From contig CAWIGF010000001.1 in the NCBI GenBank assembly GCA_963835585.1, forward strand, positions 125,160 to 189,159: DNA of 64,000 nt, read 5' to 3'. This DNA comes from an uncultured Candidatus Woesearchaeota archaeon. GTDB taxonomy: Archaea > Nanobdellota > Nanobdellia > Woesearchaeales > UBA10107. The notes beneath the pieces are model-generated. The model was not told the DNA's origin and did no database searches. It saw nothing but the letters and a program-made list of their open reading frames with translations. Shown here piece after piece: positions 49,735 through 64,000 of the stretch (positions are counted from its first letter, which is position 1; each line of letters opens with the position of its first letter). A program made the translations under genes and the position numbers.

Positions 49735-51048
49735 ATGCAAGGAATGTTGGTTGCCAAATACGGCGGAAGTTCAATTGCTTCCAAAAATGATATTGAAAAC
49801 ATCAAGAAGATAACAAAAGACAATCCATTGAGAAGGATTATCGTAGTTTCTGCACCAGGAAAGAGATATTCTGAGGACATTAAAGTAACTGATCTCTTGA
49901 TCGATTTGGCAAAAACAAAAAACAAGTCCACTGCCAACAAAATAGTCGAGAGGTATAAACAAATTTGGCCGGGAACTAATTCAGACGAGTTGAGAAAAAA
50001 TTTGCGAAAAAGAATGAGACAGCAAGGCCTAAACTCTGATGCATATCTGGATTCTCTGAAAGCATTTGGTGAAGAAAGCAGTGCAAAAGCTCTAGCGAAA
50101 GCGATGAATGCTGAATATGTTGATCCAAAAGATTTTCTAGTCTTAAGTTCCGATTTTGGAAATGCGAAAGTACTTCCTGAGTCATATGATAAAATAAGAA
50201 AATTATCTGACAGAAAAAGAATTCTTGTTCTACCTGGATTCTATGGATACACAAAAGACGGAAGAATAGCGACAATGAACAGAGGCGGTTCCGATTTGAC
50301 CGGCGCTGTTGTTGCGGCAGGATTGTGCGCAAGCTTATATGAAAATTTTACAGATGTTAACGGAATATTTGCAGCAGATCCACACATAATTAGGAATCCG
50401 AAAAAAATAAAGGAATTGACATATCACGAAATGAGGGACCTTGCCTATCTGGGCTCTAAGTTGCATCCAGAATCAATAATTCCTGTAGCCAATAAAAATA
50501 TTCCTATTCATATAAGATCCGTAGCTGACTATCCAAAAGACGGGACTCATGTCGTCAGTGAACGCATAGTAGATCCAAAACATCCCATTGTGGGCATAGC
50601 ATATCAACCAGGTTTCTGCTCTTTTGATATATGTCAGCTTGGTTTGCATGAAAGAGTGGGCGTTCTCAGGAACATAGCAGAAGTATTTGAGAAAAATAAA
50701 CTTTCAATAGAATACATTCCAAGCGCCATAGATGACATATCAGTTATTGTTAGAAATAGACAATTTGATGGAAAAAAGATAATAGATATAATGAACGAAA
50801 TAAACAAATCTGTTGGAGATGGAACGAAAGTCACCTTGGAAGAAAAAATAGGTTGTTTAGTGGTTGCTGGTAAGGGTCTGCGTGGGCAAAGAGGAATATC
50901 CGCAGAAATACAAGGAAAATTGGCAAGGGCAGGAGTCAATATTGAATTCATTTCTCAAGGTTCTCAGGAAAGGTGCATAATATATGGCATCAGCGAACAA
51001 GATGGGCCTAATGCACTTAATGCACTGTATGATGAATATATTAGGTAA
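49735..51048 (+). CDS. Aspartate kinase with C-terminal ACT domains
   Basis: AKYGGSS, VVSAPGK..TDLL and a tandem ACT-like C-terminus (VVAGKGL..GISAEI...). Confidence 0.75.
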   Translation: MQGMLVAKYGGSSIASKNDIENIKKITKDNPLRRIIVVSAPGKRYSEDIKVTDLLIDLAKTKNKSTANKIVERYKQIWPGTNSDELRKNLRKRMRQQGLNSDAYLDSLKAFGEESSAKALAKAMNAEYVDPKDFLVLSSDFGNAKVLPESYDKIRKLSDRKRILVLPGFYGYTKDGRIATMNRGGSDLTGAVVAAGLCASLYENFTDVNGIFAADPHIIRNPKKIKELTYHEMRDLAYLGSKLHPESIIPVANKNIPIHIRSVADYPKDGTHVVSERIVDPKHPIVGIAYQPGFCSFDICQLGLHERVGVLRNIAEVFEKNKLSIEYIPSAIDDISVIVRNRQFDGKKIIDIMNEINKSVGDGTKVTLEEKIGCLVVAGKGLRGQRGISAEIQGKLARAGVNIEFISQGSQERCIIYGISEQDGPNALNALYDEYIR

Positions 51049-51088
51049 TGGCAAAACATTAATAAACATTCCAGAGAGGTATTAATCC

Positions 51089-53461
51089 ATGACCATAGAC
51101 CCAAATGACCCTTTAGCAAGGTATAAACTGAAGAAGCTATTGAAGAAGATCGATGAACTTAGCGCTAGGCATACCGAGCTTATCACGGTCTACGTTCCGC
51201 CAGGTTATGAACTAATCAAAAAAATACAGCAACTGCAGGATGAGGTTGGAACAGCTTCCAACATCAAGTCAAGTTCAACGCGAAAGAATGTCACAGAAGC
51301 ACTGGAAAAAATGATTGTCCTGCTCAAGAGCATTGGTAAAACTCCGAAAAACGGGCTTGCTGCTTTCGCGGGAAATGTGGCAGAAAATGAGGGGCAAGTT
51401 GAATGGTTCACCGAATACATAGAACCGCCGATGCCATTGAACCAGAACTTGTATCGCTGCGACAAAAAATTCGTTACAGAACCATTGTACGAGATGGCTG
51501 CATCTGATGATATTTATGGTCTTGTTGTTTTGGACAGAAGAGATGCATCCTTGGCTGTTCTCAGAGGAAAGGCATTCAAAATCATCGCTAAAACCCACTC
51601 AGAGGTTCCTGGAAAGTTCAAGGCGGGCGGACAATGCTGTCTTCCAGATTCATTAGTGCAATTGAATACCGGAGAAATTGTCGAAATCAATGATGCAGAA
51701 TATCCAATTAAAGCCGTTGATTTATCGAACAGAAATATAATAGACACAAAGATAATAGACAAATGGAACGTCACAAAAAATGAAATTTATAAAATAACAA
51801 CAAAAAACCCACGAATGGAAATAACATGCTCGAAAGATCATTTATTCTTTGTAAGATCAGACAATATCATTGAAAAGCCTGCCTGCGACTTAACTACAAA
51901 TGATTACCTTATCGTTCCAGAAATTATTGAAGTCGATGGTTTGGTTCAGTCTATAAAACAATATTCGAATGGAAAAATAAAAACACCAAAGACAATAAAC
52001 GAACCATTTGCACAAATAATTGGCTATTACCTAGGAGATGGAAATGTCGATGATTCAAGAGTTTGTTTCTCGGAAGGCAGAAAAGATGTCGCTGAATCGT
52101 ATTTGAATAAGTGCAAGAAACTATTCAATGCGAATACACATATAAGATTCAGAAAAAATAAGGGATATTATGAAGTACGTGTCTATGGCAGACCGCTTGA
52201 ACGCCTATTCAGAGAGCAATTTCCAAAAAAAGAAGGAATTCCACTAGCGATACTGAAATCTCCTAAAAACGTAGTTGCCTCATTCTTAAAGGGATTATTT
52301 GATGCGGAAGGATATGTAAGCAACAGGGTTGCTTTGGGAATAAACGATAAACTGCTTGCAAGGCATATACAAATAGCTCTTCTAAGATTTGGAATAATAT
52401 CCTCACTCCAAGAATATGATAATAGGAGAAACCCTTACAGCGACAAACCGAGATACACCATAGAACTATGCGGAAAGGAATCCATCATTATGTTCAATAA
52501 AATCATCGGATTTTCTGCAAAAGACAAACATGAAAAGCTCGTAAATCTTATCAAAAATAAATCAACTGTGGACTACACAAGACAAATTCTTGCGACTGGA
52601 AGGGAAGTCAGGCAAATAATCGAAGCAAATGGATTCAAATTACACAATCTTCTAAAAGATATTGCACCAGGTGGTTTCTTTGTTAATAAGAGAAACACAA
52701 GCAAATATGCATTCAAGAAACAAATCCTAGATAAATTGAAAAAACACAAAAAAATATACCAAGAACTAAAGAAAATCTACGATTGCCAACTGATCCCTGC
52801 AAAGATAAACAAAATAGTGAAACGTAATAAAAAAACAAAACTAATAGATATTTCAACGCAATCAGCGAATTTCATAGCAAATTGTATATTAACACATAAC
52901 AGCGCTGCACGTTTTGGAAGGGTACGAGAAGATTCAAAACGAGAACATTTTAAGAAAGTCGCTGAACTCATGAAGGATGAATTTCTTAATATGCCAGGAT
53001 TGAAAGGAATAATCATTGGCGGGCCTGAAACGACAGTTGTAGATTTCTTGAACCAAGAATACATTACAGGAGATGTCCAGAAAAAGATTTTGGGATACAA
53101 GCCATTGAGTTATACTGAAGAATTTGGCATTCAGGAATTATTGGACAAGGCATCGGACCTACTTGGAGAAGCTGAAATCTCTGATGAAAAGAAAATTATG
53201 GCACGGTTCCTCGAAACATTGCAAAAAAAGGAAAAAATGGCAGAATATGGCTATGATGCAGTAAAGCAGAAGCTGGAAATGGGTGTTGTTGATGTCCTTT
53301 TGATATCCGAATCTCTCGATGATCAAAAAATAGAAGAGCTTGAAGACATAGCTAAAAAATTCAGCACAACAGTCAAGATAATTTCTACAGATACACGAGA
53401 AGGAGTTCAACTTAGAGAGATTGGAAAGGTAGCTGCCATTTTGAGATATGAAGTCGAATAA
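51089..53461 (+). CDS. prf1: Peptide chain release factor aRF1, interrupted by an intein
   Basis: NIKS motif (residues 58-61). GGQ (180-182) is followed by the intein. The extein resumes SAARFGRVRE. The exteins total 368 aa. Confidence 0.9.
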   Translation: MTIDPNDPLARYKLKKLLKKIDELSARHTELITVYVPPGYELIKKIQQLQDEVGTASNIKSSSTRKNVTEALEKMIVLLKSIGKTPKNGLAAFAGNVAENEGQVEWFTEYIEPPMPLNQNLYRCDKKFVTEPLYEMAASDDIYGLVVLDRRDASLAVLRGKAFKIIAKTHSEVPGKFKAGGQCCLPDSLVQLNTGEIVEINDAEYPIKAVDLSNRNIIDTKIIDKWNVTKNEIYKITTKNPRMEITCSKDHLFFVRSDNIIEKPACDLTTNDYLIVPEIIEVDGLVQSIKQYSNGKIKTPKTINEPFAQIIGYYLGDGNVDDSRVCFSEGRKDVAESYLNKCKKLFNANTHIRFRKNKGYYEVRVYGRPLERLFREQFPKKEGIPLAILKSPKNVVASFLKGLFDAEGYVSNRVALGINDKLLARHIQIALLRFGIISSLQEYDNRRNPYSDKPRYTIELCGKESIIMFNKIIGFSAKDKHEKLVNLIKNKSTVDYTRQILATGREVRQIIEANGFKLHNLLKDIAPGGFFVNKRNTSKYAFKKQILDKLKKHKKIYQELKKIYDCQLIPAKINKIVKRNKKTKLIDISTQSANFIANCILTHNSAARFGRVREDSKREHFKKVAELMKDEFLNMPGLKGIIIGGPETTVVDFLNQEYITGDVQKKILGYKPLSYTEEFGIQELLDKASDLLGEAEISDEKKIMARFLETLQKKEKMAEYGYDAVKQKLEMGVVDVLLISESLDDQKIEELEDIAKKFSTTVKIISTDTREGVQLREIGKVAAILRYEVE
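51635..52900 (+). mobile_element. Intein (422 aa) with LAGLIDADG homing endonuclease, inserted between GGQ and S of aRF1
   Basis: Starts with Cys (CCLPDSLV, block A). Block B is TCSKDHLFF. The LAGLIDADG motifs are IIGYYLGDGNV and FLKGLFDAEGYV. It ends ILTHN, followed by Ser+1. Confidence 0.85.
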
Positions 53462-53952
53462 TGAACAAAAAAGAATTCAAGAAGCTAATAAAGAAAGATA
53501 AATATCAAGTTTTATTATTTACCTCGAGATTTCCACTTCCCTACAAAATACCTCATTTCGCAGTACATTCTTGGATTGTGACGGCAAATAAAGGGAAAAT
53601 AATTCGATGGGAAGTATACCAAGTTCCTGACTATGTCAAGAATAGCAAAGGGTATATCTATTGGAACTACATTAAACCGTGGCTTGGTATCAAGAAGTAT
53701 GATAGCCTAGGTGCAGAACGACATAATAGCAAACTTATTGGAAAAATAGAAGGAACAGAAGGTTCTCTTGCTGAAAAGATGGTTACATTCATCAATACAA
53801 AAGCAACGACCTACCCATTCGCTGGCAAATATAAGTATGTTCCTGGGCCAAATAGCAATACTTTTGTTCAATGGATTCTAAATAAATTCCCCACATCAGG
53901 TCTAACACTGCCTTGGAATGCGTTCGGTAAGACATATAAAGTACGCAAGTAA
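53461..53952 (+). CDS. DUF3750-like protein
   Basis: HFAVHSWIV... and the C-terminal YVPGPNSNTFVQWIL pattern. Confidence 0.45.
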   Translation: MNKKEFKKLIKKDKYQVLLFTSRFPLPYKIPHFAVHSWIVTANKGKIIRWEVYQVPDYVKNSKGYIYWNYIKPWLGIKKYDSLGAERHNSKLIGKIEGTEGSLAEKMVTFINTKATTYPFAGKYKYVPGPNSNTFVQWILNKFPTSGLTLPWNAFGKTYKVRK

Positions 53953-53961
53953 CCTTTTTGT

Positions 53962-54615
53962 ATGAGTTTCCTCGACGAAGCACTACACAATCTTGGAGTA
54001 AATCAAACATATGAGACTACAATTAAATACAGTGACCACTTCAAGCCGTACGGCTCGAACATCAAGGTATATCCGAACAGAATCGTTCTCGGACTTAGCA
54101 GATCGTGGAAACAAATAAGCGACGAGATAAAAGTTGGATTGGCACAGGAACTTCTTGTAAAAGTATTCAGGATAAAAAAAACAACTCTGAACATGGAGCT
54201 TTACAACGGCTTCATCAAAAACATTCACATCGCAATACCGAAAGAAGAACCGGAGCCTCGGTTGTTGGCGTCATTCAATCATGTTAATGAAAAATACTTC
54301 AACGACATGATTGAACGCCCGAATATAGTGTGGGGAGATTTCACGACAAGAAAATTAGGCTCATACGATTACCGACAGGATACGATAACCATGAGCAGAG
54401 TTCTAGAGAAGGAAGAAAAATTCATTGATCTCGTAATGCATCACGAATTGCTGCACAAAAAACACAAGTTCTCTAGTAAAAATGGTCGATCATTGCATCA
54501 CTCATCTGCATTCAAAAGAGAAGAACATAGTTTCGAGAACTATGAAGAACTAGAGAAACAACTGAAAAATTATCTCATGAAAGCCAATCTAAGAAAGATG
54601 TTTAAATTCTGGTAA
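53962..54615 (+). CDS. DUF45/SprT-like zinc metallopeptidase
   Basis: HELLH (HExxH) preceded by RKLGSYDYRQDTITMSRVL, as in YgjP-type proteins. Confidence 0.5.
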   Translation: MSFLDEALHNLGVNQTYETTIKYSDHFKPYGSNIKVYPNRIVLGLSRSWKQISDEIKVGLAQELLVKVFRIKKTTLNMELYNGFIKNIHIAIPKEEPEPRLLASFNHVNEKYFNDMIERPNIVWGDFTTRKLGSYDYRQDTITMSRVLEKEEKFIDLVMHHELLHKKHKFSSKNGRSLHHSSAFKREEHSFENYEELEKQLKNYLMKANLRKMFKFW

Positions 54616-54742
54616 TAGTCAGCATCTTGTTTTTAGCAGAATTTAACCAGCAAGCAAAACAACTTATAAATCTTTTTTAAGTCATTACAAATGTTTATAA
54701 ATCATCTTCGACAGGTATGCAATAGAAAATAGAAGGTAAAAT

Positions 54743-56590
54743 ATGAAAGTAAAGGAACAAAAAATTAAAGAAAGTGTTGAAAAATTGGTGGTTGACACAT
54801 CTGTTTTGATAGAGGGCGTTGTATCAGAGAAACTTGCCTCAAAAGAAATAACACCAGAAACAATATTAATCCATGAAGCAGTCATCGCGGAACTTGAGGG
54901 TCAGGCAAATGCAGGGAAGGAAAAAGGATATCTTGGACTGGAAGAAATAAAAAAAATACGCGACGTAGCAAAGAAGTTTGATATAAATATTGTATATGCA
55001 GGAAGAAGACAGAACGAATCGGAAATACGCCTCGCAAAATCAGGGGCTATCGATGCCATGATAAGAGAACTTGCTTACACTGAAGATGCTCATTTCATAA
55101 CCGCAGACAGAGTTAATGCTCTTGCTGCGCAGGCAAAAGGAATCAAAGTAATTCTTATTGAATTTGAAAAGGAGATTAAAGACCTTACGTTCGAGAAATA
55201 TTTCGATGCAACGACCATGTCCTTGCATATTAAGGAAAACACCAAACCCGTCGCGAAAAGAGGAAAGCCAGGGGAATGGGAACTGGTTGAAGTGGATAAC
55301 ATTCTTAACAGAAGAACTGTTGAATCAATGGCAAAGGAAATCATTGAAGAAGCGACAAGAAGAGAAAACAGCTCGATAGAAGTTGAGCGCGAAGGTTCGA
55401 CAATCGTCCAGCTTGGAAGATACAGGACAGTAATTGTAAGACCTCCATTCTCTGATGGTTGGGAAATCACGCTAGTAAGACCTGTAAAAAGGCTATCGCT
55501 CGAGGATTATAGCCTTAGTGAAAAATTAAAAACGCGACTGAGCGGAAAGGCTGAGGGAGTCTTGATTGCTGGGGCTCCAGGAATGGGTAAAAGCACATTC
55601 ACCCAAGCATTGACTGAATATTATTCAAAACAGAATAAAATAATCAAGACTATTGAGGCTCCAAGGGATTTGGTTGTGCCAGATACAATAACGCAGTATG
55701 CAATCGGGCTGGGAAGCCCTGAAGAAATACACGACATCCTTCTTCTGTCCAGGCCGGATTACACCATTTTCGATGAAATGAGGAACAAAGATGATTTCGA
55801 ACTCTTTGCTGATTTGCGATTGGCGGGAGTAGGGATGGTTGGAGTCATTCATGCAACAAAACCCATCGACGCGATACAGCGATTCATCGGAAAGATAGAA
55901 ATGGGAGTTATCCCTCACATAGTAGACACTGTAATTTTCATCAAAAACGGGGCTGTCGATAAGACATTCAGTGTAAGCATGGAAGTAAAAGTGCCTGCTG
56001 GAATGACCGAAGCGGACTTGGCACGACCATGTGTCGTTATCAATGACTTCGAAACAGAAAAGCAGGAATATGAATTATATTCATACGGAAACGACACAGT
56101 TGTCATTCCGGTAACTGAAATAAAGGCACGTGGAAATCCAGTGCAGGAGCTAGCAAAGTTAGCAATTCAAACCGAACTGCAAAGATATGCAGATGAAGTC
56201 GAGGTTGACATCACATCGGACAATTCATGCACAATATATGTCCCGGAACATGATATCGCAGGGATAATTGGAAAGCAAGGTAAAAACATCGAGATGCTCG
56301 AAAAAGCGATCGGCATGAGCATTGACGTCCAGGAGTTGAAAGGAAACAGGAAAAAAAAGAAACAGGGAGAACCTGCTTATTTCAAATCCGAAATAACAAA
56401 TAAATACATCATACTCAAGGTCGATGGAAATTATGCAGGAAAGAATGTTTACATATATGTAGATGAGGAACTGCTAATGACAGCGAATGTAGGGAAAAAC
56501 GGCGAGATCAAAATAGGATCTGAGCACAAGCTTGGAAAAACACTTAGAAATGCCATTTCTTCAAGAGGCAACGTCGAGGTCAGGCTGTGA
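54743..56590 (+). CDS. PIN-domain / PilT-like ATPase / KH-domain protein (archaeal PINA type)
   Basis: N-terminal PIN (VVDTSVLIEG), Walker A GAPGMGKST, Walker B IFDEMR and C-terminal KH (IIGKQGKNIEMLE). Confidence 0.75.
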   Translation: MKVKEQKIKESVEKLVVDTSVLIEGVVSEKLASKEITPETILIHEAVIAELEGQANAGKEKGYLGLEEIKKIRDVAKKFDINIVYAGRRQNESEIRLAKSGAIDAMIRELAYTEDAHFITADRVNALAAQAKGIKVILIEFEKEIKDLTFEKYFDATTMSLHIKENTKPVAKRGKPGEWELVEVDNILNRRTVESMAKEIIEEATRRENSSIEVEREGSTIVQLGRYRTVIVRPPFSDGWEITLVRPVKRLSLEDYSLSEKLKTRLSGKAEGVLIAGAPGMGKSTFTQALTEYYSKQNKIIKTIEAPRDLVVPDTITQYAIGLGSPEEIHDILLLSRPDYTIFDEMRNKDDFELFADLRLAGVGMVGVIHATKPIDAIQRFIGKIEMGVIPHIVDTVIFIKNGAVDKTFSVSMEVKVPAGMTEADLARPCVVINDFETEKQEYELYSYGNDTVVIPVTEIKARGNPVQELAKLAIQTELQRYADEVEVDITSDNSCTIYVPEHDIAGIIGKQGKNIEMLEKAIGMSIDVQELKGNRKKKKQGEPAYFKSEITNKYIILKVDGNYAGKNVYIYVDEELLMTANVGKNGEIKIGSEHKLGKTLRNAISSRGNVEVRL

Positions 56591-57873
56591 TAGACATCAA
56601 CCTAATAAGGGAAAACGCGGAATTTGTCAAATCAAATATAAAGAGGAAAGGACAAATTGAAAAGCTCCCTCTGGTTGATGAGGCAAAAAAATTAGATATT
56701 CAGATAAAGGAATTGAAGCAAAGTGCCCAACAGCTAAGAGCGGAAAGAAATAAAATATCTGAAAAAATAAATGAAGCAAAGAAAAAAGGCAAGGATGTAA
56801 AGAAAATACTTGAAGAAGCGAAGAAAATCCCAGATAAGATAAAAGTTCTAGAGGATGAACAAATAAAAATCGAAAATCTCCTTAATGAAATAATGCAAAA
56901 GATCCCAAACATAATGTGGAAAGACGTTCCTAAAGGAAAGGATGCCACACAAAATGTCGAGATAAAGAAGGGCGGAAAGATAAAGAAATTTGATTTTCCT
57001 GTAAAAAATCATGTTGAAATAATCGAAACATTGCAGATTGGCGATTTTGAGGCGTCCGCAAGGGTTTCAGGAAAAGGATTTTATTACCTAAAAGGGGATC
57101 TGGCTTTGTTGAATCAGGCACTGATTAAATTTTCAATAGATTTCATGACAAAAAAGGGTTACACAAACATCGAGCCACCTCTAATGTTAAACGAAAAATC
57201 AATTTTTGCTTCCATGGACAAAAATGCAATGGCACAGTCCGTTTATTCCATAAAAGATGATGATTTGAGTTTGATTGGAACATCTGAGCAGTCAATACTC
57301 GCCATGCATGCAGGGGAAACCATTCAAGAAATGGAATTACCCAAAAAATACTTCTCATACTCAATGTGCTTCAGAAAGGAAGTCGGAGCTCACGGGATAA
57401 ATGAAAAAGGACTTTGGAGAACGCACCAATTCAACAAAGTTGAGCAGTTTATTTTCTGCAGACCAGAAGATTCTGAGAAAATGTATGAGGAACTGTTCAA
57501 TAATTCTGATGAAATACTCAAGGTGCTTGAGCTACCGTACCGATGGGTTGAAATATGTACAGGAGACTTGGCAGACTGGAAATTCAGAAGCGCGGATTTT
57601 GAAGTATACAGGCCAACAACAAAAGAATACGGAGAATTGGGTTCATTATCGAACTGTACCGACTACCAAGCAAGAAAATTAAACATAAAGTGTGTTAATA
57701 AGGAAGGAAACAAGAGAATTTTGCATACCTTGAACAACACAGCGATAGCGACATCGAGAATGATGGTTGCAATCATAGAAAACTACCAGAATAAAGATGG
57801 TTCCATAACCATACCTAAGGTTCTTGTCCCATATATGGGAGGAAAGACAAAAATCGCCAAGGAGGTACATTAG
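56587..57873 (+). CDS. serS: Seryl-tRNA synthetase
   Basis: MIDINLIREN start, coiled-coil arm and class II motifs (FRKE, GSLSNCTDYQARKL, TLNNTA). GTGA overlap with the upstream gene. Confidence 0.9.
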   Translation: MIDINLIRENAEFVKSNIKRKGQIEKLPLVDEAKKLDIQIKELKQSAQQLRAERNKISEKINEAKKKGKDVKKILEEAKKIPDKIKVLEDEQIKIENLLNEIMQKIPNIMWKDVPKGKDATQNVEIKKGGKIKKFDFPVKNHVEIIETLQIGDFEASARVSGKGFYYLKGDLALLNQALIKFSIDFMTKKGYTNIEPPLMLNEKSIFASMDKNAMAQSVYSIKDDDLSLIGTSEQSILAMHAGETIQEMELPKKYFSYSMCFRKEVGAHGINEKGLWRTHQFNKVEQFIFCRPEDSEKMYEELFNNSDEILKVLELPYRWVEICTGDLADWKFRSADFEVYRPTTKEYGELGSLSNCTDYQARKLNIKCVNKEGNKRILHTLNNTAIATSRMMVAIIENYQNKDGSITIPKVLVPYMGGKTKIAKEVH

Positions 57874-57874
57874 A

Positions 57875-58063
57875 ATGGCAGACGATTTTGAGGACGAAAC
57901 GTATACAGAGGAAAAGGATGAAGTGGCAGAGGAAGACACCGCTGATGAAGATCTTGAAAATGACGAAATAAATGATTGGGAAGAAGGCTTCCAGAAGGGA
58001 GAAGAAGAGGCAGAATTCCAAGAAGAAAAGAAAGAAGAGGAAGAACCGGAAGAAGAAGTCTGA
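57875..58063 (+). CDS. Highly acidic 62-aa protein
   Basis: The ATG lies 1 nt after the serS stop. About 55% Asp/Glu. It ends 2 nt before cdc6-2. It could be a low-complexity artefact. Confidence 0.35.
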   Translation: MADDFEDETYTEEKDEVAEEDTADEDLENDEINDWEEGFQKGEEEAEFQEEKKEEEEPEEEV

Positions 58064-58065
58064 CC

Positions 58066-59148
58066 ATGGGTGTTTTTAATGATATTTTACGGAGCGATGA
58101 AACGCTCTTCAAGAATGTAATCGCGCTTGATTATGACTACATTCCAAAATTGGTCCCATTCAGGGATGTGCAACAGCATCAAATGGCGATGTGCATCAAG
58201 CCGCTTTTCCAGGAAAGAAGTGGAAGAAATTTATTCATTCATGGACCGCCCGGAGTAGGAAAGACTGTCGCATGCCGTCACGTGTTGAAAGAATTGGAGG
58301 ACGAGCACAATGAGATTGAGCCGATTTACATCAATTGCTGGGAAAGAAACAGCTCATACAAGATAATGATCGCAATCTGCGACCACCTCGGATACACATT
58401 TACCCATAATAAAAAGACCGATGAACTTTTCAAAATTGTAAGAGATTTGCTGAACAAAACATCAGTGGTGTTTGTCTTTGACGAGGTCGACAAGGCAGAT
58501 GAATATGATTTCCTTTACTACATTCTTGAACAAATATACAAAAAATCGATATTTCTAATCACGAACTACAAGGAATGGCTTCTGAACCTTGATGAGCGAA
58601 TCAAGTCACGTTTAACTGCAGAGATAATTGAGTTCAAGCCGTATAGCCTGCAGGAGACCAGGGAAATTATGGAGCAGCGTGTTAATTACGCGTTCCAGGA
58701 CAATGTCCTTGACAAAGATGCGTTCGAAGCGATTGCCAAGAAGACATATGACATACATGACTTACGAAAGGGACTTTACCTGCTTCGCGAAGCCGGAAAC
58801 CTTGCCGAAGACAAGAGCATGAAGCACATCAATATAGAACAAATCAACAATGCCATCAGGAAACTTGATGATTTCACCATAAACAAGGAAGAAGGTCTTG
58901 ATGTGGAGACAAGATTCGTACTGGAACTGATAAAAAAGAATCCCGAAAGCAGGACAGGGGATCTCTACAAGATTTACACAAACAATGGAGGGAATAGCTC
59001 GCTAAAGACATTCACAAGAAAACTAAAAAGACTTGAGGATGGTAAATTCATTATTCTTGACAAAAGCGGCGGCGGACCAGATGGAAACACATCCATCATA
59101 AAACTTGCATCAAAGAGTCCTGTAAACAAAAAGCTCACAGAATTCTGA
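58066..59148 (+). CDS. cdc6: Orc1/Cdc6 replication initiator (copy 2)
   Basis: Walker A GPPGVGKTV, Walker B VFVFDEVD and a C-terminal winged helix. The start is ATG 58066, not the Arg-rich extension in the track. Confidence 0.85.
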   Translation: MGVFNDILRSDETLFKNVIALDYDYIPKLVPFRDVQQHQMAMCIKPLFQERSGRNLFIHGPPGVGKTVACRHVLKELEDEHNEIEPIYINCWERNSSYKIMIAICDHLGYTFTHNKKTDELFKIVRDLLNKTSVVFVFDEVDKADEYDFLYYILEQIYKKSIFLITNYKEWLLNLDERIKSRLTAEIIEFKPYSLQETREIMEQRVNYAFQDNVLDKDAFEAIAKKTYDIHDLRKGLYLLREAGNLAEDKSMKHINIEQINNAIRKLDDFTINKEEGLDVETRFVLELIKKNPESRTGDLYKIYTNNGGNSSLKTFTRKLKRLEDGKFIILDKSGGGPDGNTSIIKLASKSPVNKKLTEF

Positions 59149-59150
59149 CT

Positions 59151-59420
59151 ATGATAACAAAAATTCTTGGATTATTTGATGTCATCGCTTCAATTCTATT
59201 AATTACAACATCATTTATGCCAAAAATAATGTTGGCCATTGCAGCTGGTTATCTCATCATAAAAGGAACTACGTTCGGATTCATGGGAGATTATGTTAGT
59301 TTCGTTGACGGTGCCATTGGCTTATATTTCGTCCTTCTCTATTTCGGTATGAGCATACACACGGTAAACATAATATCTTTTGTCTTCCTGCTACAGAAAG
59401 GATTGTTTAGCCTTGTCTGA
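59151..59420 (+). CDS. Small membrane protein
   Basis: Three hydrophobic helices. Starts 2 nt after the cdc6-2 stop. Confidence 0.45.
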   Translation: MITKILGLFDVIASILLITTSFMPKIMLAIAAGYLIIKGTTFGFMGDYVSFVDGAIGLYFVLLYFGMSIHTVNIISFVFLLQKGLFSLV

Positions 59421-59649
59421 CATACTCCAAAATTTGACTTAGAAAATCTTGTTGTCCTGTGGTATAACAGCAAATTCTGCACGAAGAATTCTAAAATCCA
59501 ATCCAGAACGCTTCTTCCTCGCGTATAATGCACTGCCAGACAAAATATAATTATTTCGCATGCATTTGCCATTATCCCGTCACCACAGGACAACCGCATG
59601 TGAGCTATATAAACCAAAAAACACACTATTCTTTTAGAGGTGATGCACC

Positions 59650-59769
59650 ATGCATTACAAGGAAACAACACAACAAATCCAGAACATTTGTTTTCAGCAA
59701 CTGAAGAAACTTTGCGTCAAGGAAAATGAGAGTTTTGACGTGCAGTTCAGCGACAGGTGGATACAATGA
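59650..59769 (+). CDS. Candidate mini-ORF (39 aa)
   Basis: GAGGTG SD ~7 nt upstream. My translation is MHYKETTQQIQNICFQQLKKLCVKENESFDVQFSDRWIQ. ATGA-coupled to the next mini-ORF. Confidence 0.2.
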   Translation: MHYKETTQQIQNICFQQLKKLCVKENESFDVQFSDRWIQ

Positions 59770-59882
59770 AAATAGAACGATTATTGGAAAAATACGACAA
59801 AAAAGTTCCTTCTCCCTCCATCGTCATTGTCGAGAACTTATTTTACGCAGACAATAACGTACTTGGAAGGATAATCTCTTAA
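59766..59882 (+). CDS. Candidate mini-ORF (38 aa)
   Basis: AGGTGG SD ~7 nt upstream. My translation is MKIERLLEKYDKKVPSPSIVIVENLFYADNNVLGRIIS. Confidence 0.2.
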   Translation: MKIERLLEKYDKKVPSPSIVIVENLFYADNNVLGRIIS

Positions 59883-59938
59883 TATAGTATTTTCTCAATT
59901 ACATAAATTTTATAAAGCTGGCAAAGAGAATACTTGGC

Positions 59939-60628
59939 ATGACTGCAAACACTGCGATACTTTTCATACAGCAATATCCGCAATTAACCTATGCATTAAC
60001 CACGGGCATCCAAATATTGGGCATCCTTGTATCATTTTTTATAAGTTTTTTAGGGTATAAGGCATATAAAATCACCAATGATGCGAAACACAAATACTTC
60101 TTCTATGGATTTTTGTTCTTAGGGTTGAGTTTCCTAGCGAACCTAGCATTGAATGTTTTGCTCCGTTCCTCATTCGCAAAATATCTCCTTGAAAGCCAGT
60201 ATCATTACTACACACTTTCGTTCTTTGGAATATATTACATATTCTTACTTGGCATGATGCTTGCATACCTTTCCCTTGCAATCGTTTATACTGACATGAA
60301 CAAATCGAAGGACATCTGGCTGTTCTACTTCTGGACCATCATAATAGGAATTTACACATTCACAGGACAAGATGTGTTGTTCAATATAGTCTGCGCATTA
60401 CTGCTTTCTTTCGTTGTTTTGTTCACTTATCAAAAATACAAAGAGAACAGGAATGCTAACAGACGATCCACGTTCCTGGCATTTTTCTGCCTGTTCCTCT
60501 TCCACATCCTAGGGGTTATCCCCGCAATAGACTATCTGTTCATGATAAGAGAACTCATTTTATTGATAGGCCTCATATTATTACTGATCCCTTTATGGAA
60601 AATACAATATGGCAGAAAGAAGAAGTAA
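59939..60628 (+). CDS. Polytopic membrane protein (about 7 TM), unknown function
   Basis: Regularly spaced hydrophobic helices and a basic C-terminus. 20-nt overlap with the downstream wHTH gene. Confidence 0.55.
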   Translation: MTANTAILFIQQYPQLTYALTTGIQILGILVSFFISFLGYKAYKITNDAKHKYFFYGFLFLGLSFLANLALNVLLRSSFAKYLLESQYHYYTLSFFGIYYIFLLGMMLAYLSLAIVYTDMNKSKDIWLFYFWTIIIGIYTFTGQDVLFNIVCALLLSFVVLFTYQKYKENRNANRRSTFLAFFCLFLFHILGVIPAIDYLFMIRELILLIGLILLLIPLWKIQYGRKKK

Positions 60629-60881
60629 ACACCAAATCATATATGACATCCTGAACCTCATTAGTCAGAAAGGGGGAAAAGTTAAACCGACTCATATTCT
60701 TTATGGAGGCAATTTATCACATGACCGCCTCAAAAAATATTTGCAAGAATTAATTGACGCCGGTTTTATTGAGAAAATAGATGAGAAGGGCAAAACATTC
60801 TACCAATTGGCTGAAAAAGGATATAAATTCATGGAAGAATTCAAGAAAATTGAAGAAATGACTTCAGCATTCGGAATTTAA
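60609..60881 (+). CDS. Small winged-helix DNA-binding protein (HTH_45-like)
   Basis: IIYDILNLIS...THILYGGNLSHDRLKKYLQELIDAGFIE is typical of 90-aa archaeal wHTH proteins. Confidence 0.6.
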   Translation: MAERRSKHQIIYDILNLISQKGGKVKPTHILYGGNLSHDRLKKYLQELIDAGFIEKIDEKGKTFYQLAEKGYKFMEEFKKIEEMTSAFGI

Positions 60882-61300
60882 CCTTTGCCAGCATAATATT
60901 TTTTGCTCAATTCGCTCGTGATTGCATTTACTCTTTCGAAATTCTTAAGCTCTTTTTGAGTCCAAAACTGTTTTACTCTTTTTTCCGCTTTTTCTTTTTC
61001 TCCTGGCTTGAACTTAAAGACATCTCCTATCCCATAGAACCAACACCAGGAAATGACATCCGGATTGTGAATCAAATAATGATCTGCAAGATTCGTGTCA
61101 TACCTGCCTCCAGAAAACGAACCAAAAACTCCCTTGCTAACCCTTTTCTGTAAAGATTCACGACCACCTGTTCTTTTTACCGCCTCTTCCACAAAATCAT
61201 AAAGCATCGTATTGGACGGGATAGTACAACCTTCCATTATTGGTTCTTTAAACCCCAAAATTAGCGCGTCCATCGTTCTGTCTTCTAACTCAAATAACAT
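60878..61300 (-). CDS. Unknown 140-aa protein translationally coupled to reverse transcriptase
   Basis: The ATG at 61300 is preceded by a GGAGGG SD 6 nt upstream. 11-nt overlap with the RT 3' end. No TM segment and no motif I recognise. Confidence 0.65.
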   Translation of the reverse strand: MLFELEDRTMDALILGFKEPIMEGCTIPSNTMLYDFVEEAVKRTGGRESLQKRVSKGVFGSFSGGRYDTNLADHYLIHNPDVISWCWFYGIGDVFKFKPGEKEKAEKRVKQFWTQKELKNFERVNAITSELSKKYYAGKG

Positions 61301-62228
61301 CTAAACCCTCCATTTTCATACGTACGTTCGCATCCTCGTTAACCCAAGGGCTATAGTTCACTTCGTTCATCTCAAAAGGCTTGCTCTTATTCTTCAGCCG
61401 TTCGCTTTCTGAATTCTTCATCACCTCTCCATCAACAAATTTGTGACCAAGCAGATATATCGAATCCTCTTTCTGAAAGAATAACTTATCCTTAGCAACC
61501 GGAAAATACAATTCAGTCAGGTAGATCGCTCCAAGAAACAATTTTGGTTCTTGTTCATTCTGTGAACTTATTGTGATGTCATCAACCCATCGAGAATATC
61601 GAAATCTTCTCTCATTTGATTTTTCAGCAAGCAATACATCAAATTTAAACAATATTCTATTAAACAATGCCATGCTGCAAGGAGATCCTTGTGGCAACGC
61701 TCTTTTTCCATCCGAATATTTAGTTGTGTTTAGCATCGAAAGGAGATAGGTGATGGGTTTTCTGTTATCTTCTGAAATATCAGACAATAAAGAGGAGAAG
61801 AAATCAACCACGTGTTCAAATGAAATATTCTGAAATGCACTTTTCAAGTCATATGAAAGGACTGATGCGCACGGCAAATGTGTCTCGAGGCTCTTCTTTA
61901 CTGACCAACCTTTCTCTCCGCCATGACATGATTTATGCACATCTTTGCTTTTTATCAATGGAAGAATATATTCACCCAGAAATATTTTCAGAGGATTTTT
62001 CGGGACTGATAATTCTCTTTTTTTATTTCCAGATACTTGTACCCATTTGTTGTATAGCGGCTTTCTTTTATTTAAAATAAAGAGGACATCGTCAATTGAC
62101 GAATCGAACCTGCATTTGTCAACATCGTATTCCAAAATAACATTCTTTAAAGCGTTTCTATTTTTGGGATCTCCAAGTATGTTTTCTAGTTCAATCATGG
62201 TTATTTTACAAAAAATCATCCTGTTCAT
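61290..62228 (-). CDS. Stand-alone reverse transcriptase (retron/Abi/UG-like)
   Basis: Ordered RT motifs: KKRELSVPKNPLK, HGGEKGWSVKKSLETH, SYDLKSAF (Asp127), LPQGSPCSMALFN, RWVDDITIS (nt 61578-61589) and LLGHKF. 312 aa with no maturase or endonuclease domain. Confidence 0.85.
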   Translation of the reverse strand: MNRMIFCKITMIELENILGDPKNRNALKNVILEYDVDKCRFDSSIDDVLFILNKRKPLYNKWVQVSGNKKRELSVPKNPLKIFLGEYILPLIKSKDVHKSCHGGEKGWSVKKSLETHLPCASVLSYDLKSAFQNISFEHVVDFFSSLLSDISEDNRKPITYLLSMLNTTKYSDGKRALPQGSPCSMALFNRILFKFDVLLAEKSNERRFRYSRWVDDITISSQNEQEPKLFLGAIYLTELYFPVAKDKLFFQKEDSIYLLGHKFVDGEVMKNSESERLKNKSKPFEMNEVNYSPWVNEDANVRMKMEGLDVI

Positions 62229-62310
62229 CCAATGCTTCCCAATGCCCTCGTTCCGGAAGGTATAACGGCGTAATCCTGCCGTCTTTTGTTCGTATTGTCA
62301 CTTCTATCAT
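62206..62310 (-). CDS. Candidate 34-codon ORF overlapping RT start (alternatively a structured RNA leader)
   Basis: GGAG SD 7 nt upstream of ATG 62310. My translation is MIEVTIRTKDGRITPLYLPERGHWEALDEQDDFL. It ends 20 nt inside the RT ORF. The segment is clearly more GC-rich than other spacers. Confidence 0.35.
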   Translation of the reverse strand: MIEVTIRTKDGRITPLYLPERGHWEALDEQDDFL

Positions 62311-62442
62311 AGTGCATCTCCGCTTGTTTTCAAGCTAAATAGTATATAGACTTGTAAACTATATGCATTTTACTGCACAGAATTTGTCAATAGTGTTGTA
62401 TATAAGGCAAAACCTTAAAAAGAAGGAAAATTCCAATAATTC

Positions 62443-63339
62443 ATGCTTGATGCTGCAACAGTAAAAAAAATAATTGATTTTGTCTTCGTAAGGCCAAGAA
62501 CTATACAGGAAATCGCAGAACACATCGATAAGAATTGGAGAACTGCAGACAGATATGTGCAGGAAATACAGGAAGAGCAGGGAACGCTTTCTACAAGAGT
62601 GTTCAGGGAAGGAACAAGAGGGGCGTTAAAGGTCGTATACGGTGTAAATGCTGAGAAAATAAGCAACACCGTTGCCCAGCAGATCCTTGAAGATCATATT
62701 TTCAAATCATTATGGAGAGATGACTTTTCCCCATTTGATATTTTCCAATATGTTCCAGAAAATAACAAGCAAGTATGGAGCAGACAAGGAAAAGGGGAGG
62801 ATTATCTCGGAACTCTTGATAATTTACGTGATTTATTATTGCAAACTGAAAAACAATTGTTGCTTTTCTCAGGAAACTTATCATTTGTGTTCTATAAAGA
62901 TAAAAAAATAGATATATTCAGTGTATTTGAGGAACTGGTAAAGAGAGGAGTTAGCATTAAAGTCGTTTGCAGAGTCGATTTAACAGGATTGGACAATATT
63001 AAGAGACTTCTTTCGTTGAATTTCAAATATGGCAAGGAATTGATTGAAATACATCATAAGCAGCAGCCATTGAGATGTACAGTGGTTGATAAAAAATTCT
63101 TCAACATCAAGGAAGTATTCACTCCAACTAGCAGAAACTACGAATTACAAAAGAAAACATATGTATTCTATACAATCAATGAAAAGGAATGGCTTGATTG
63201 GATCACAAAAATATTCTGGAAAATGTTTTCGCATTCAATCGATGCTGGTGACAGAATAGAACAATGGAACAAGGTAAAAGACTCAACCCTTGACTACACC
63301 CAGTGGTCTCAATCTGACAACAATCTTCGCAATGCCTAG
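62443..63339 (+). CDS. wHTH regulator with TrmB-like / PLD-like C-terminal domain
   Basis: N-terminal wHTH (RPRTIQEIAEHIDKNWRTADRYVQEI). The C-terminal part resembles the TrmB sensor domain. Divergent from the RT operon. Confidence 0.45.
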   Translation: MLDAATVKKIIDFVFVRPRTIQEIAEHIDKNWRTADRYVQEIQEEQGTLSTRVFREGTRGALKVVYGVNAEKISNTVAQQILEDHIFKSLWRDDFSPFDIFQYVPENNKQVWSRQGKGEDYLGTLDNLRDLLLQTEKQLLLFSGNLSFVFYKDKKIDIFSVFEELVKRGVSIKVVCRVDLTGLDNIKRLLSLNFKYGKELIEIHHKQQPLRCTVVDKKFFNIKEVFTPTSRNYELQKKTYVFYTINEKEWLDWITKIFWKMFSHSIDAGDRIEQWNKVKDSTLDYTQWSQSDNNLRNA

Positions 63340-64000
63340 TTCGTCAGAAACTTTAACGACTTCATCAATGTCCTTGTAAGCGCCTGGTGCCTCTTCTGCT
63401 ATGCCTGTTATTGAATGACCTTTTACTATGATTCCTTCATGCCTTAAATCAGAAACCACACTTTCACCTTTGAAATCCCTCAATGCCTGGGTTCGCGACA
63501 TCATTCTTCCAGCTCCGTGTGCTGTTGAACCTAAACTTAATTTCATTCCTTCTTTCGTTCCGACCAAAACATACGATGCAGTCCCCATAGAACCAGGAAT
63601 TATGACTGGCTGTCCGACTTTCCTGTATATTTCAGGAATTTCTTTGTTTCCTGGACCAAAAGCTCTTGTTGCACCTTTGCGGTGCATGAAAACCTTCACT
63701 TTCTTCCCATCAAATTCTTGCTCTTCAATTTTTGCTATGTTATGAGCAACATCGTAAAGAACATGCATAGATTCTTTCTTTATCCCGAATATATTTACAA
63801 AACAATTTCTCACCAAATCAGCAATTATGTGACGATTGCACCACGCAAAATTGGCAGCAGCTTTCATTGCAGCCAAATAATCACTGCATAATTTAGTTCC
63901 AGATGGTGCATAAATCAATTCCCTGTCTGGCAACTTTGTAATTTCGTCTGCGAATTCCTTTTCCATCAATCTCAAATAATCTGAACAAACCTGATGCCCA
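63283..64000 (-). CDS. rtcB: tRNA-splicing ligase RtcB, C-terminal part (5' end outside window)
   Basis: GHQVCSDY at the window edge, PGSMGTASY, STAHGAGR and a C-terminal PLGVVKG. The frame is open to nt 64000. Confidence 0.9.
   Translation of the reverse strand, partial: GHQVCSDYLRLMEKEFADEITKLPDRELIYAPSGTKLCSDYLAAMKAAANFAWCNRHIIADLVRNCFVNIFGIKKESMHVLYDVAHNIAKIEEQEFDGKKVKVFMHRKGATRAFGPGNKEIPEIYRKVGQPVIIPGSMGTASYVLVGTKEGMKLSLGSTAHGAGRMMSRTQALRDFKGESVVSDLRHEGIIVKGHSITGIAEEAPGAYKDIDEVVKVSDELGIAKIVVRLRPLGVVKG

Follow-up and report, generated by a model that had tools for sequence, protein, structure and literature searches.

Retrons have been described almost entirely in bacteria and contribute ~4% of archaeal reverse transcriptases (RTs), and the RTs of DPANN archaea belong mostly to diversity-generating retroelements (DGRs) (PMC8632793). 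A 64,000-nt stretch of a DPANN archaeal genome (an uncultured Woesearchaeota archaeon, contig CAWIGF010000001.1), referred to here as the window and numbered by its own positions throughout, contains an RT gene that raises the question of which class of RT it encodes, and whether the sequences around it supply the RNA and the effector of a defence system. A preliminary description of the locus had proposed such a system, consisting of a leader or mini open reading frame (mini-ORF), a retron- or Abi-like RT and a 140-aa partner protein (p140). Our literature search retrieved no paper linking retrons with Woesearchaeota, Pacearchaeota or Nanoarchaeota.

To answer this question we examined the RT, its leader, p140 and the divergent neighbour p298 across homologous loci. 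The results favour, with a probability of roughly 60%, a retron-like RT that stands alone and occupies a variable slot in the host operon divergent from p298. This reading corrects a tempting mis-annotation of the locus as an RT-plus-effector defence operon.

Identity and classification of the reverse transcriptase

The RT gene lies on the minus strand at 61290-62198 and encodes 302 aa. Translation could instead begin further upstream, at the ATG at 62228, for a product of 312 aa, but the ATG at 62198 agrees better with the alignment of N termini and is the start used by the database gene call (P0001, 302 aa). The translation carries KKRELSVPKNPLK, HGGEKGWSVKKSLETH, SYDLKSAF, LPQGSPCSMALFN, RWVDDITIS and LLGHKF, with WVDD encoded at nt 61578-61589, and is matched by Pfam RVT_1 with an E-value of 8.5e-12. 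All 31 aligned homologues retain the R-W-x-D-D of motif C, the motif B glycine and the HG within the CHGGEKGW box, and nearly all retain the motif B glutamine, which indicates that the RT assignment is no chance match. The protein consists of fingers, palm and thumb with no extra domain. Ratios of nonsynonymous to synonymous substitution (dN/dS) between pairs of RT homologues range from 0.18 to 0.40, showing that the gene is maintained by purifying selection, and with its motifs intact and under selection the enzyme is predicted to be catalytically intact and probably an active polymerase. The ORFs, their coordinates, the 11-nt gene overlap, the GGAGGG sequence, the RT motifs and the archaeal host given in the preliminary description all agree with our own results, the archaeon being of the DPANN group.

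Comparison with RT models places this protein closest to retrons. The top 25 PADLOC matches are all retron RT models (types VI, III-A, II-A and XI; E ~1e-24), Abi and UG/DRT models are absent from these top matches, and the protein has no C-terminal extra domain. PADLOC retron RT models match all 31 family members examined and no single type stands out, the best scores of 85-115 bits being spread evenly over types II-A, III-A, VI and XI; bona fide bacterial retron RTs reach 200-260 bits on the same models. Among NCBIfam models, retron_St85_RT matches the RT at 1e-26 (93.6 bits versus a cut-off of 235) and the Drt models at ~1e-7 (Drt3a, 31.7 bits versus 200; Drt2, 29.4 bits versus 390). By the PADLOC and NCBIfam scores, then, the family falls outside the defined retron types I-XIII. 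When the family profile is compared with the PDB, the first 14 matches are retron RTs, from Ec86 at 3e-16 down to Eco8 at 3e-10, followed at ~1e-6 by Drt2, an AbiK-type RT and group II RTs. The earlier view of a genuine, intact RT is upheld by these three comparisons, which place it with retrons rather than with group II, DGR or Abi/UG enzymes.

DGRs are the dominant class in DPANN archaea, with ~80% of the RTs (PMC8632793), and the size of the protein is compatible with a DGR RT. However, motif B reads LPQGSP and is of the QG type rather than the SQ type of DGRs, and no direct repeat of at least 35 nt occurs in the 14 kb from 50000 to 64000, hence no template repeat/variable repeat pair. Origin from a degraded group II intron fares no better: the NCBIfam group II RT/maturase model (TIGR04416) reaches 3e-8 and 33 bits versus a cut-off of 300, retron RTs are ahead by approximately ten orders of magnitude in E-value in the PDB comparison, Rfam reveals no intron ribozyme near the RT, and the protein ends shortly past the thumb with no maturase domain. 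The repeat pair and the flanking ribozyme had been named beforehand as findings that would overturn the defence-RT reading; with neither present, the DGR or group II explanation is effectively refuted. A CRISPR-associated RT is likewise excluded, as no CRISPR array was found within 40000-64000 and the neighbouring proteins are not Cas proteins.

The retron hallmarks are an NAXXH motif (region X) between RT2 and RT3 and a VTG motif (region Y) in RT7 (PMC7736814). In the alignment to Ec86, NATPH of region X corresponds to SLETH, with the histidine kept and N and A replaced, and KVTGL of region Y corresponds to YLLGH, in which leucines replace V and T; both hallmarks are therefore only half kept, with the histidine and the glycine surviving. 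The substituted forms are themselves conserved in the family, S113 and G261 being invariant and L114 and H117 nearly invariant. Elsewhere in the same alignment QGAPSS corresponds to QGSPCS and YADD to WVDD. The tryptophan in place of the usual Tyr/Phe of YxDD had been singled out as unusual, yet the RWVDD form of motif C also occurs in bacterial retron RTs of types VI, III-A and XIII from Acidobacteriota, Armatimonadota and Ignavibacteria (loci L018, L067, L069, L020, L077, L019, L027 and L098, all retrieved by the same pattern). Its presence in bona fide retrons makes it a recurrent retron trait that is not special to this locus. We conclude from its sequence that the RT is a member of the retron/retron-like superfamily, within which its family forms a clade of its own that is far more divergent.

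Search for a retron RNA and nature of the leader

If the locus were a compact three-part retron-like defence system, the leader would be the template non-coding RNA (ncRNA), the RT would convert it to multicopy single-stranded DNA (msDNA), and p140 would be an effector released or activated upon infection. The retron-like character of the RT speaks for this alternative. Rfam searches at the gathering threshold over the whole window and at E <= 10 over 60400-62800 gave nothing relevant, and the inverted repeats around the RT include no suitable a1/a2-like arms. In all, Rfam, inverted-repeat, folding and nhmmer searches revealed no msr/msd-like ncRNA contiguous with the RT.

A conserved non-coding sequence does occur between p298 and the RT, and it belongs to p298. 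This element of ~75 nt (62348-62421, without assigned strand) is conserved across loci whose proteins share only ~50% identity, and all loci examined, those with an RT as well as those without, have it upstream of p298. TATA-like boxes at 62415-62421 and 62359-62368 enclose TACAACAC and a palindrome (62374-62390), for which the family consensus is GACA-N7-TGTC and the window sequence GACA-N7-TGTG. The element is present in a single copy in the window and has no Rfam match, and its palindrome arms vary without compensation. We considered it as the RNA of the RT and rejected it, given its occurrence upstream of p298 in the absence of an RT and the uncompensated arms. Its sequence features fit a bidirectional promoter and operator rather than an RNA, probably the autoregulatory operator and bidirectional promoter of p298, which would drive p298 in one direction and the RT-p140 transcript in the other. 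Apparent copies upstream of long-form RTs (372 aa or more) proved to be T-rich low-complexity matches, and when every non-coding segment around the RTs was compared systematically, the p298 element alone was recovered.

Between this element and the RT lies a leader, also on the minus strand, containing a hairpin, GCTTGAAAACAAGC (62322-62335), a Shine-Dalgarno (SD)-like GGAGAT (62316-62321) and the mini-ORF, an upstream ORF (uORF) of 34 codons at 62206-62310. With the RT starting at ATG 62198, the mini-ORF stops 7 nt before the RT, so the overlap with the RT start described earlier falls away. The closest relative, L110, has no RT. Alignment of its DNA to the window extends from the p298 ATG across the hairpin, the SD and the first four mini-ORF codons and breaks down at about 62298; the first ~145 nt after p298, including the mini-ORF start, are thus common to both. 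Both sequences (window 62206-62335 and L110 about 2090-2200) share a hairpin of the form GCTTG-NAAA-CAAGC, an SD-like GGAG(A/G)T and a uORF starting ATGATAGAAGT. In the window 7 nt separate the end of the uORF from the RT ATG, and in L110 2 nt separate it from a 90-aa gene. These features may constitute a conserved uORF-coupled leader of the p298-divergent operon, and the retention of hairpin and SD in the RT-less L110 shows that they are part of the host operon leader.

Folding of the remaining ~100 nt before the RT shows no significant structure (z -0.6 to -1.8), and nhmmer finds no match to them in 119 loci. The leader had been described as GC-rich, which holds mildly (0.43 versus 0.38 for the locus) and is not accompanied by significant structure. 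An msr/msd would have little space in the compact loci, where 77-186 nt separate the RT and p298 starts and the following gene adjoins or overlaps the 3' end of the RT. A leader whose 5' part is common to an RT-less relative and whose remainder is unstructured and unique does not behave as the ncRNA of this RT, and the absence of a significant fold, of flanking inverted repeats and of relatives, together with the compact spacing, weighs against the three-part defence system.

Relationship of p140 to the reverse transcriptase

The gene for p140 (60878-61300, minus strand, 140 aa) is preceded by a GGAGGG SD and overlaps the RT stop by 11 nt. A word-indexed search found the protein itself only and suggested an orphan, a sensitivity artefact that an exhaustive HMMER search overturned by recovering a family of 63 representatives of 140-200 aa with conserved motifs. 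The AlphaFold2 model is of very high confidence, with a predicted local distance difference test (pLDDT) score of 96.6. Foldseek gave no significant match to it in the PDB or BFVD, the weak matches being mostly winged-helix proteins, and p140 probably adopts a winged-helix-like fold. It has no PADLOC, Pfam or NCBIfam match and no nuclease, TIR, protease or transmembrane features.

An effector role for p140 would be in keeping with the overlap of the two genes and their SD sequences, with the adjacency and overlap of RT and p140 in a second locus, L036, and with a fold that has no characterised match. The distribution of the family points elsewhere. Among 41 non-redundant RT loci a p140 homologue occurs in two, downstream of the RT in the window and upstream of it in L036 (7360-7884), the gene order being opposite in the two co-occurrences. 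Homologues in L116 (5001-5507) and L118 (6001-6510) instead head p298-divergent operons that have no RT, where the order in L116 and L118/L119 is TopA, p298, divergent p140-like gene, kinase-like gene, radical SAM or other genes, and Metallophos. With 39 of the 41 RT loci devoid of p140, we conclude that p140 belongs to the host operon and not to the RT: the two genes are translationally coupled in the window, yet at the family level they are functionally unpaired. Its designation as an RT-specific partner or effector is not supported, and its confident model has no enzyme-like or toxin-like match. Together with the reversed gene order and the leader results, the distribution makes the three-part defence system improbable.

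Members of the p140 family are typically the first gene past the p298 control element. Two genes upstream of the RT in other loci, of 180 aa in L001 and 179 aa in L003, were considered as p140 homologues and ruled out by BLASTP and the p140 HMM (hidden Markov model).

The p298 neighbour and the variable slot

The gene divergent from the RT, p298 (62443-63339, plus strand, 298 aa), adjoins the short-form RT, always divergently, in 24 of 26 informative short-form loci. The AlphaFold2 model (pLDDT 81) has an N-terminal winged helix-turn-helix (wHTH) domain and a C-terminal domain of the phospholipase D (PLD) fold without the HKD motif; the top Foldseek match is TrmBL2 (1.6e-9), with Nuc, Zucchini and PLD-fold matches over residues ~105-265. 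Pfam TrmB does not match the p298 sequence. By its model, p298 has the TrmB-family fold of a wHTH joined to a PLD-like effector-binding domain. The p298 family, which has no Pfam model and usually adjoins TopA, comprises more than 1200 clusters at 55-60% identity across Woesearchaeota, Pacearchaeota and Nanoarchaeota, and looks like a near-universal DPANN regulator or chromatin protein.

The first three RT loci all contained p298, which made it a candidate RT-specific partner; this was dropped in view of the >1200 clusters, the RT-less loci and the shared synteny from TopA to Metallophos. All seven loci retrieved through p298 or p140 homologues (L110-L113 and L116-L118/L119), of which L110-L113 are four p298 loci sampled without reference to the RT, are RT-less, and p298 mostly occurs without the RT. 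A Mantel test gives a moderate correlation between RT and p298 distances (r = 0.43, reached by 31 of 5000 permutations), and the nearest neighbours of the two proteins often coincide, which together with the synteny fits long vertical co-inheritance with frequent loss.

Many RT loci share the order TopA, p298, 0-3 variable genes, RT and Metallophos, and RT-less genomes share this synteny. In L110, p298 and the small wHTH protein wHTH90 are 75% and 83% identical to those of the window and mem229 and RtcB are syntenic, and the slot occupied by the RT in the window holds unrelated genes of 256, 117 and 90 aa. The accessory cassette of the window (3' part of the leader, RT and p140) spans ~1.4 kb at 60882-62298 on the minus strand. 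The earlier suggestion of an accessory system is borne out insofar as the RT and p140 are absent from the closest relative, as would also be expected of a defence gene; it does not extend to a system of leader, RT and effector. Clustering of neighbours over the 41 RT loci identified no RT-specific partner gene, the recurrent neighbours being housekeeping genes (Kae1-like, Obg-like GTPase, RadB-like, AAA_28 and Metallophos), and Pfam searches of the variable cassette genes were essentially empty.

In RT-less genomes the operon mates include a near-cut-off dCTP deaminase (Dcd), a dTMP-kinase-like protein, CYTH and a generic radical SAM protein; PADLOC and NCBIfam returned generic radical-SAM and kinase matches, the near-cut-off Dcd and no recognisable defence island. 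Two such loci, L118 (6507-8205) and L113 (2707-5904), contain dTMP-kinase-like, short radical SAM (weakly viperin/MoaA-like), near-cut-off Dcd, CYTH and AAA_28 genes. The p298-divergent operon genes can be read equally as plain nucleotide metabolism or as defence of the viperin/dNTP-depletion type. In L117 (2518-7741), which lacks p298, the slot (TopA to Metallophos) is occupied by an insertion sequence (DDE_Tnp_IS240) and by genes for an HNH protein, a DNA methylase and a phage-type integrase; it accepts insertions and appears to be a hot spot for them.

Distribution of the reverse transcriptase family

The RT family comprises ~57 protein clusters at roughly 35-52% identity, with named sources in Woesearchaeota, Pacearchaeota and Nanoarchaeota, and is DPANN-specific, all named members being DPANN except for one probable mis-bin. 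This 'Patescibacteria' contig (L008, JANBVM010000034.1) is near-identical in length, gene coordinates and match scores to a Woesearchaeota contig (L006, CAZMIN010000018.1), and its label is probably a binning error rather than bacterial carriage of the RT. A scan of viral contigs did not find the RT family; the p140 alignment was too divergent for making a search pattern for these contigs. One Woesearchaeota metagenome-assembled genome, JACOZR01, encodes two paralogous RTs, one of 405 aa that is N-terminally extended (long form; L011, 7656-8873) and one of 321 aa (short form; L012, 7770-8735). Long-form RTs adjoin p298 in none of eight informative loci and their contexts are unrelated.

These patterns bear on a second alternative, in which the RT is a domesticated cellular enzyme that is inherited vertically, has a host role in DNA or nucleotide metabolism such as repair, and is co-regulated with nucleotide-metabolism genes by p298. 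The repair role of the G2L4 RT is the analogy behind this alternative. Co-divergence with p298, purifying selection on the RT and the failure to find an effector or ncRNA are all in its favour, as are operon mates and neighbours (Dcd, dTMP-kinase-like, AAA_28, CYTH, radical SAM, TopA and RadB-like) that are not defence genes. An enzyme with a core function, however, would be expected to occur in the closest relative, which lacks the RT, as do all seven loci obtained by way of p298 or p140 homologues. The RT also evolves 2-3 times faster than p298 and has long-form paralogues in unrelated contexts. We consider domestication rather unlikely on this balance, though a better candidate than the three-part system.

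Flanking genes

On the side of the cassette opposite p298 lies wHTH90 (60609-60881, plus strand, 90 aa), a small DNA-binding protein of the HTH_45/Sso10a family (HTH_45, 1e-20; Sso10a_fam above cut-off). Its gene, a conserved member of the backbone, forms the right-hand border of the variable slot and lies outside the RT unit. Two wHTH genes do bracket the operon as originally described, but with wHTH90 83% identical in L110 and p298 present in >1200 clusters they are part of the conserved backbone. The flanking Cdc6 and RtcB were likewise verified.

Proposed organization and function

The organization that best accommodates these results is the stand-alone retron-like RT in a variable slot, within an operon transcribed divergently from the widely conserved TrmB/TrmBL2-like p298. 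Transcription would most likely start at the rightward TATA-like box of the bidirectional control element, whose palindromic operator is presumably bound by p298. The resulting transcript would consist of a ~110-nt leader (hairpin, SD and 34-codon uORF), the RT and the translationally coupled p140. The 5' part of the leader and p140 are ordinary residents of the host operon rather than the ncRNA and effector of a retron. Synthesis of cDNA by the RT probably persists, with a template RNA that would be encoded away from it. Its patchy presence, with absence from the nearest relative, and its maintenance by purifying selection suggest an accessory role that is possibly antiviral.

Several points weigh against this organization. 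The separation of the clade depends on HMM scores (the 85-115 versus 200-260 bits given above), and promoter use and co-transcription are deduced from the DNA sequence alone. The co-occurrence of two rare families in two of 41 loci, where the genes overlap by 11 nt in the window and 4 nt in L036, could reflect a functional link. An RNA for the RT may be trans-encoded or may overlap a coding region. Finally, the relative abundance of the RT and p298 (57 versus >1200 clusters) derives from searches of unequal sensitivity.

More tentatively, the DPANN clade might be a retron-derived RT of a new kind that has shed its cis-encoded msr/msd and effector, descends vertically beside p298 and is wired into the nucleotide-metabolism operon of that regulator, serving either as a domesticated cellular RT or as an antiviral RT acting, by a novel mechanism, on a trans RNA of host or viral origin. 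We regard this broader scenario as speculative, if somewhat less doubtful than domestication taken by itself.

This analysis defines a DPANN-specific retron-like clade of ~57 clusters with an intact, selected active site and neither ncRNA nor effector. Within these very small genomes the clade keeps its association with a conserved TrmB-like regulator. If the RT is active, an ultra-reduced archaeal symbiont would be using a lone retron-type RT, and the question becomes what this enzyme copies and why. The comparison also draws attention to the p298 regulator, whose operator is conserved, and to the p140 family of small proteins, both of them widespread in DPANN archaea.

Comparison with known systems

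Bacterial retron RTs, such as Ec86 and those of types VI, III-A, II-A and XIII, are by far the best sequence matches to this family and share its size of ~300 aa, its composition of fingers, palm and thumb only and its QG motif B, as well as the region X histidine, the region Y glycine and, in types VI, III-A and XIII, the RWVDD motif C. The window family differs from them in its lower model scores and in the change of NAxxH to SLxxH and of VTG to LLG. It further differs in having no adjacent msr/msd and no co-conserved effector, in its archaeal (DPANN) host and in its largely vertical descent.

Retron types VIII and XI are also retron-like RTs without recognisable ncRNA modules (PMC7736814), and in this respect provide the nearest parallel to a retron-clade RT without a detectable ncRNA. 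They carry a protease or esterase as a partner or fusion, whereas the window RT has neither a fused domain nor a conserved partner. G2L RTs have been reported as absent from archaea (PMC8632793). As a single RT gene without an effector protein, the window RT resembles the solo RTs DRT2/UG2 and G2L4, and differs from the DRT families in its weak matches to their models (Drt2 and Drt3a, above). DRT2 depends on an upstream structured ncRNA, of which no counterpart was found at this locus.

For p298 the closest parallel is the TrmB/TrmBL2 group. It differs from TrmBL2 in sequence (~13% identity, with no Pfam TrmB match) and in forming a DPANN-specific family. In its model it resembles these proteins through the N-terminal wHTH and PLD-like C-terminal domain, and the palindrome in its own promoter region would fit an autoregulating factor of the TrmB type.

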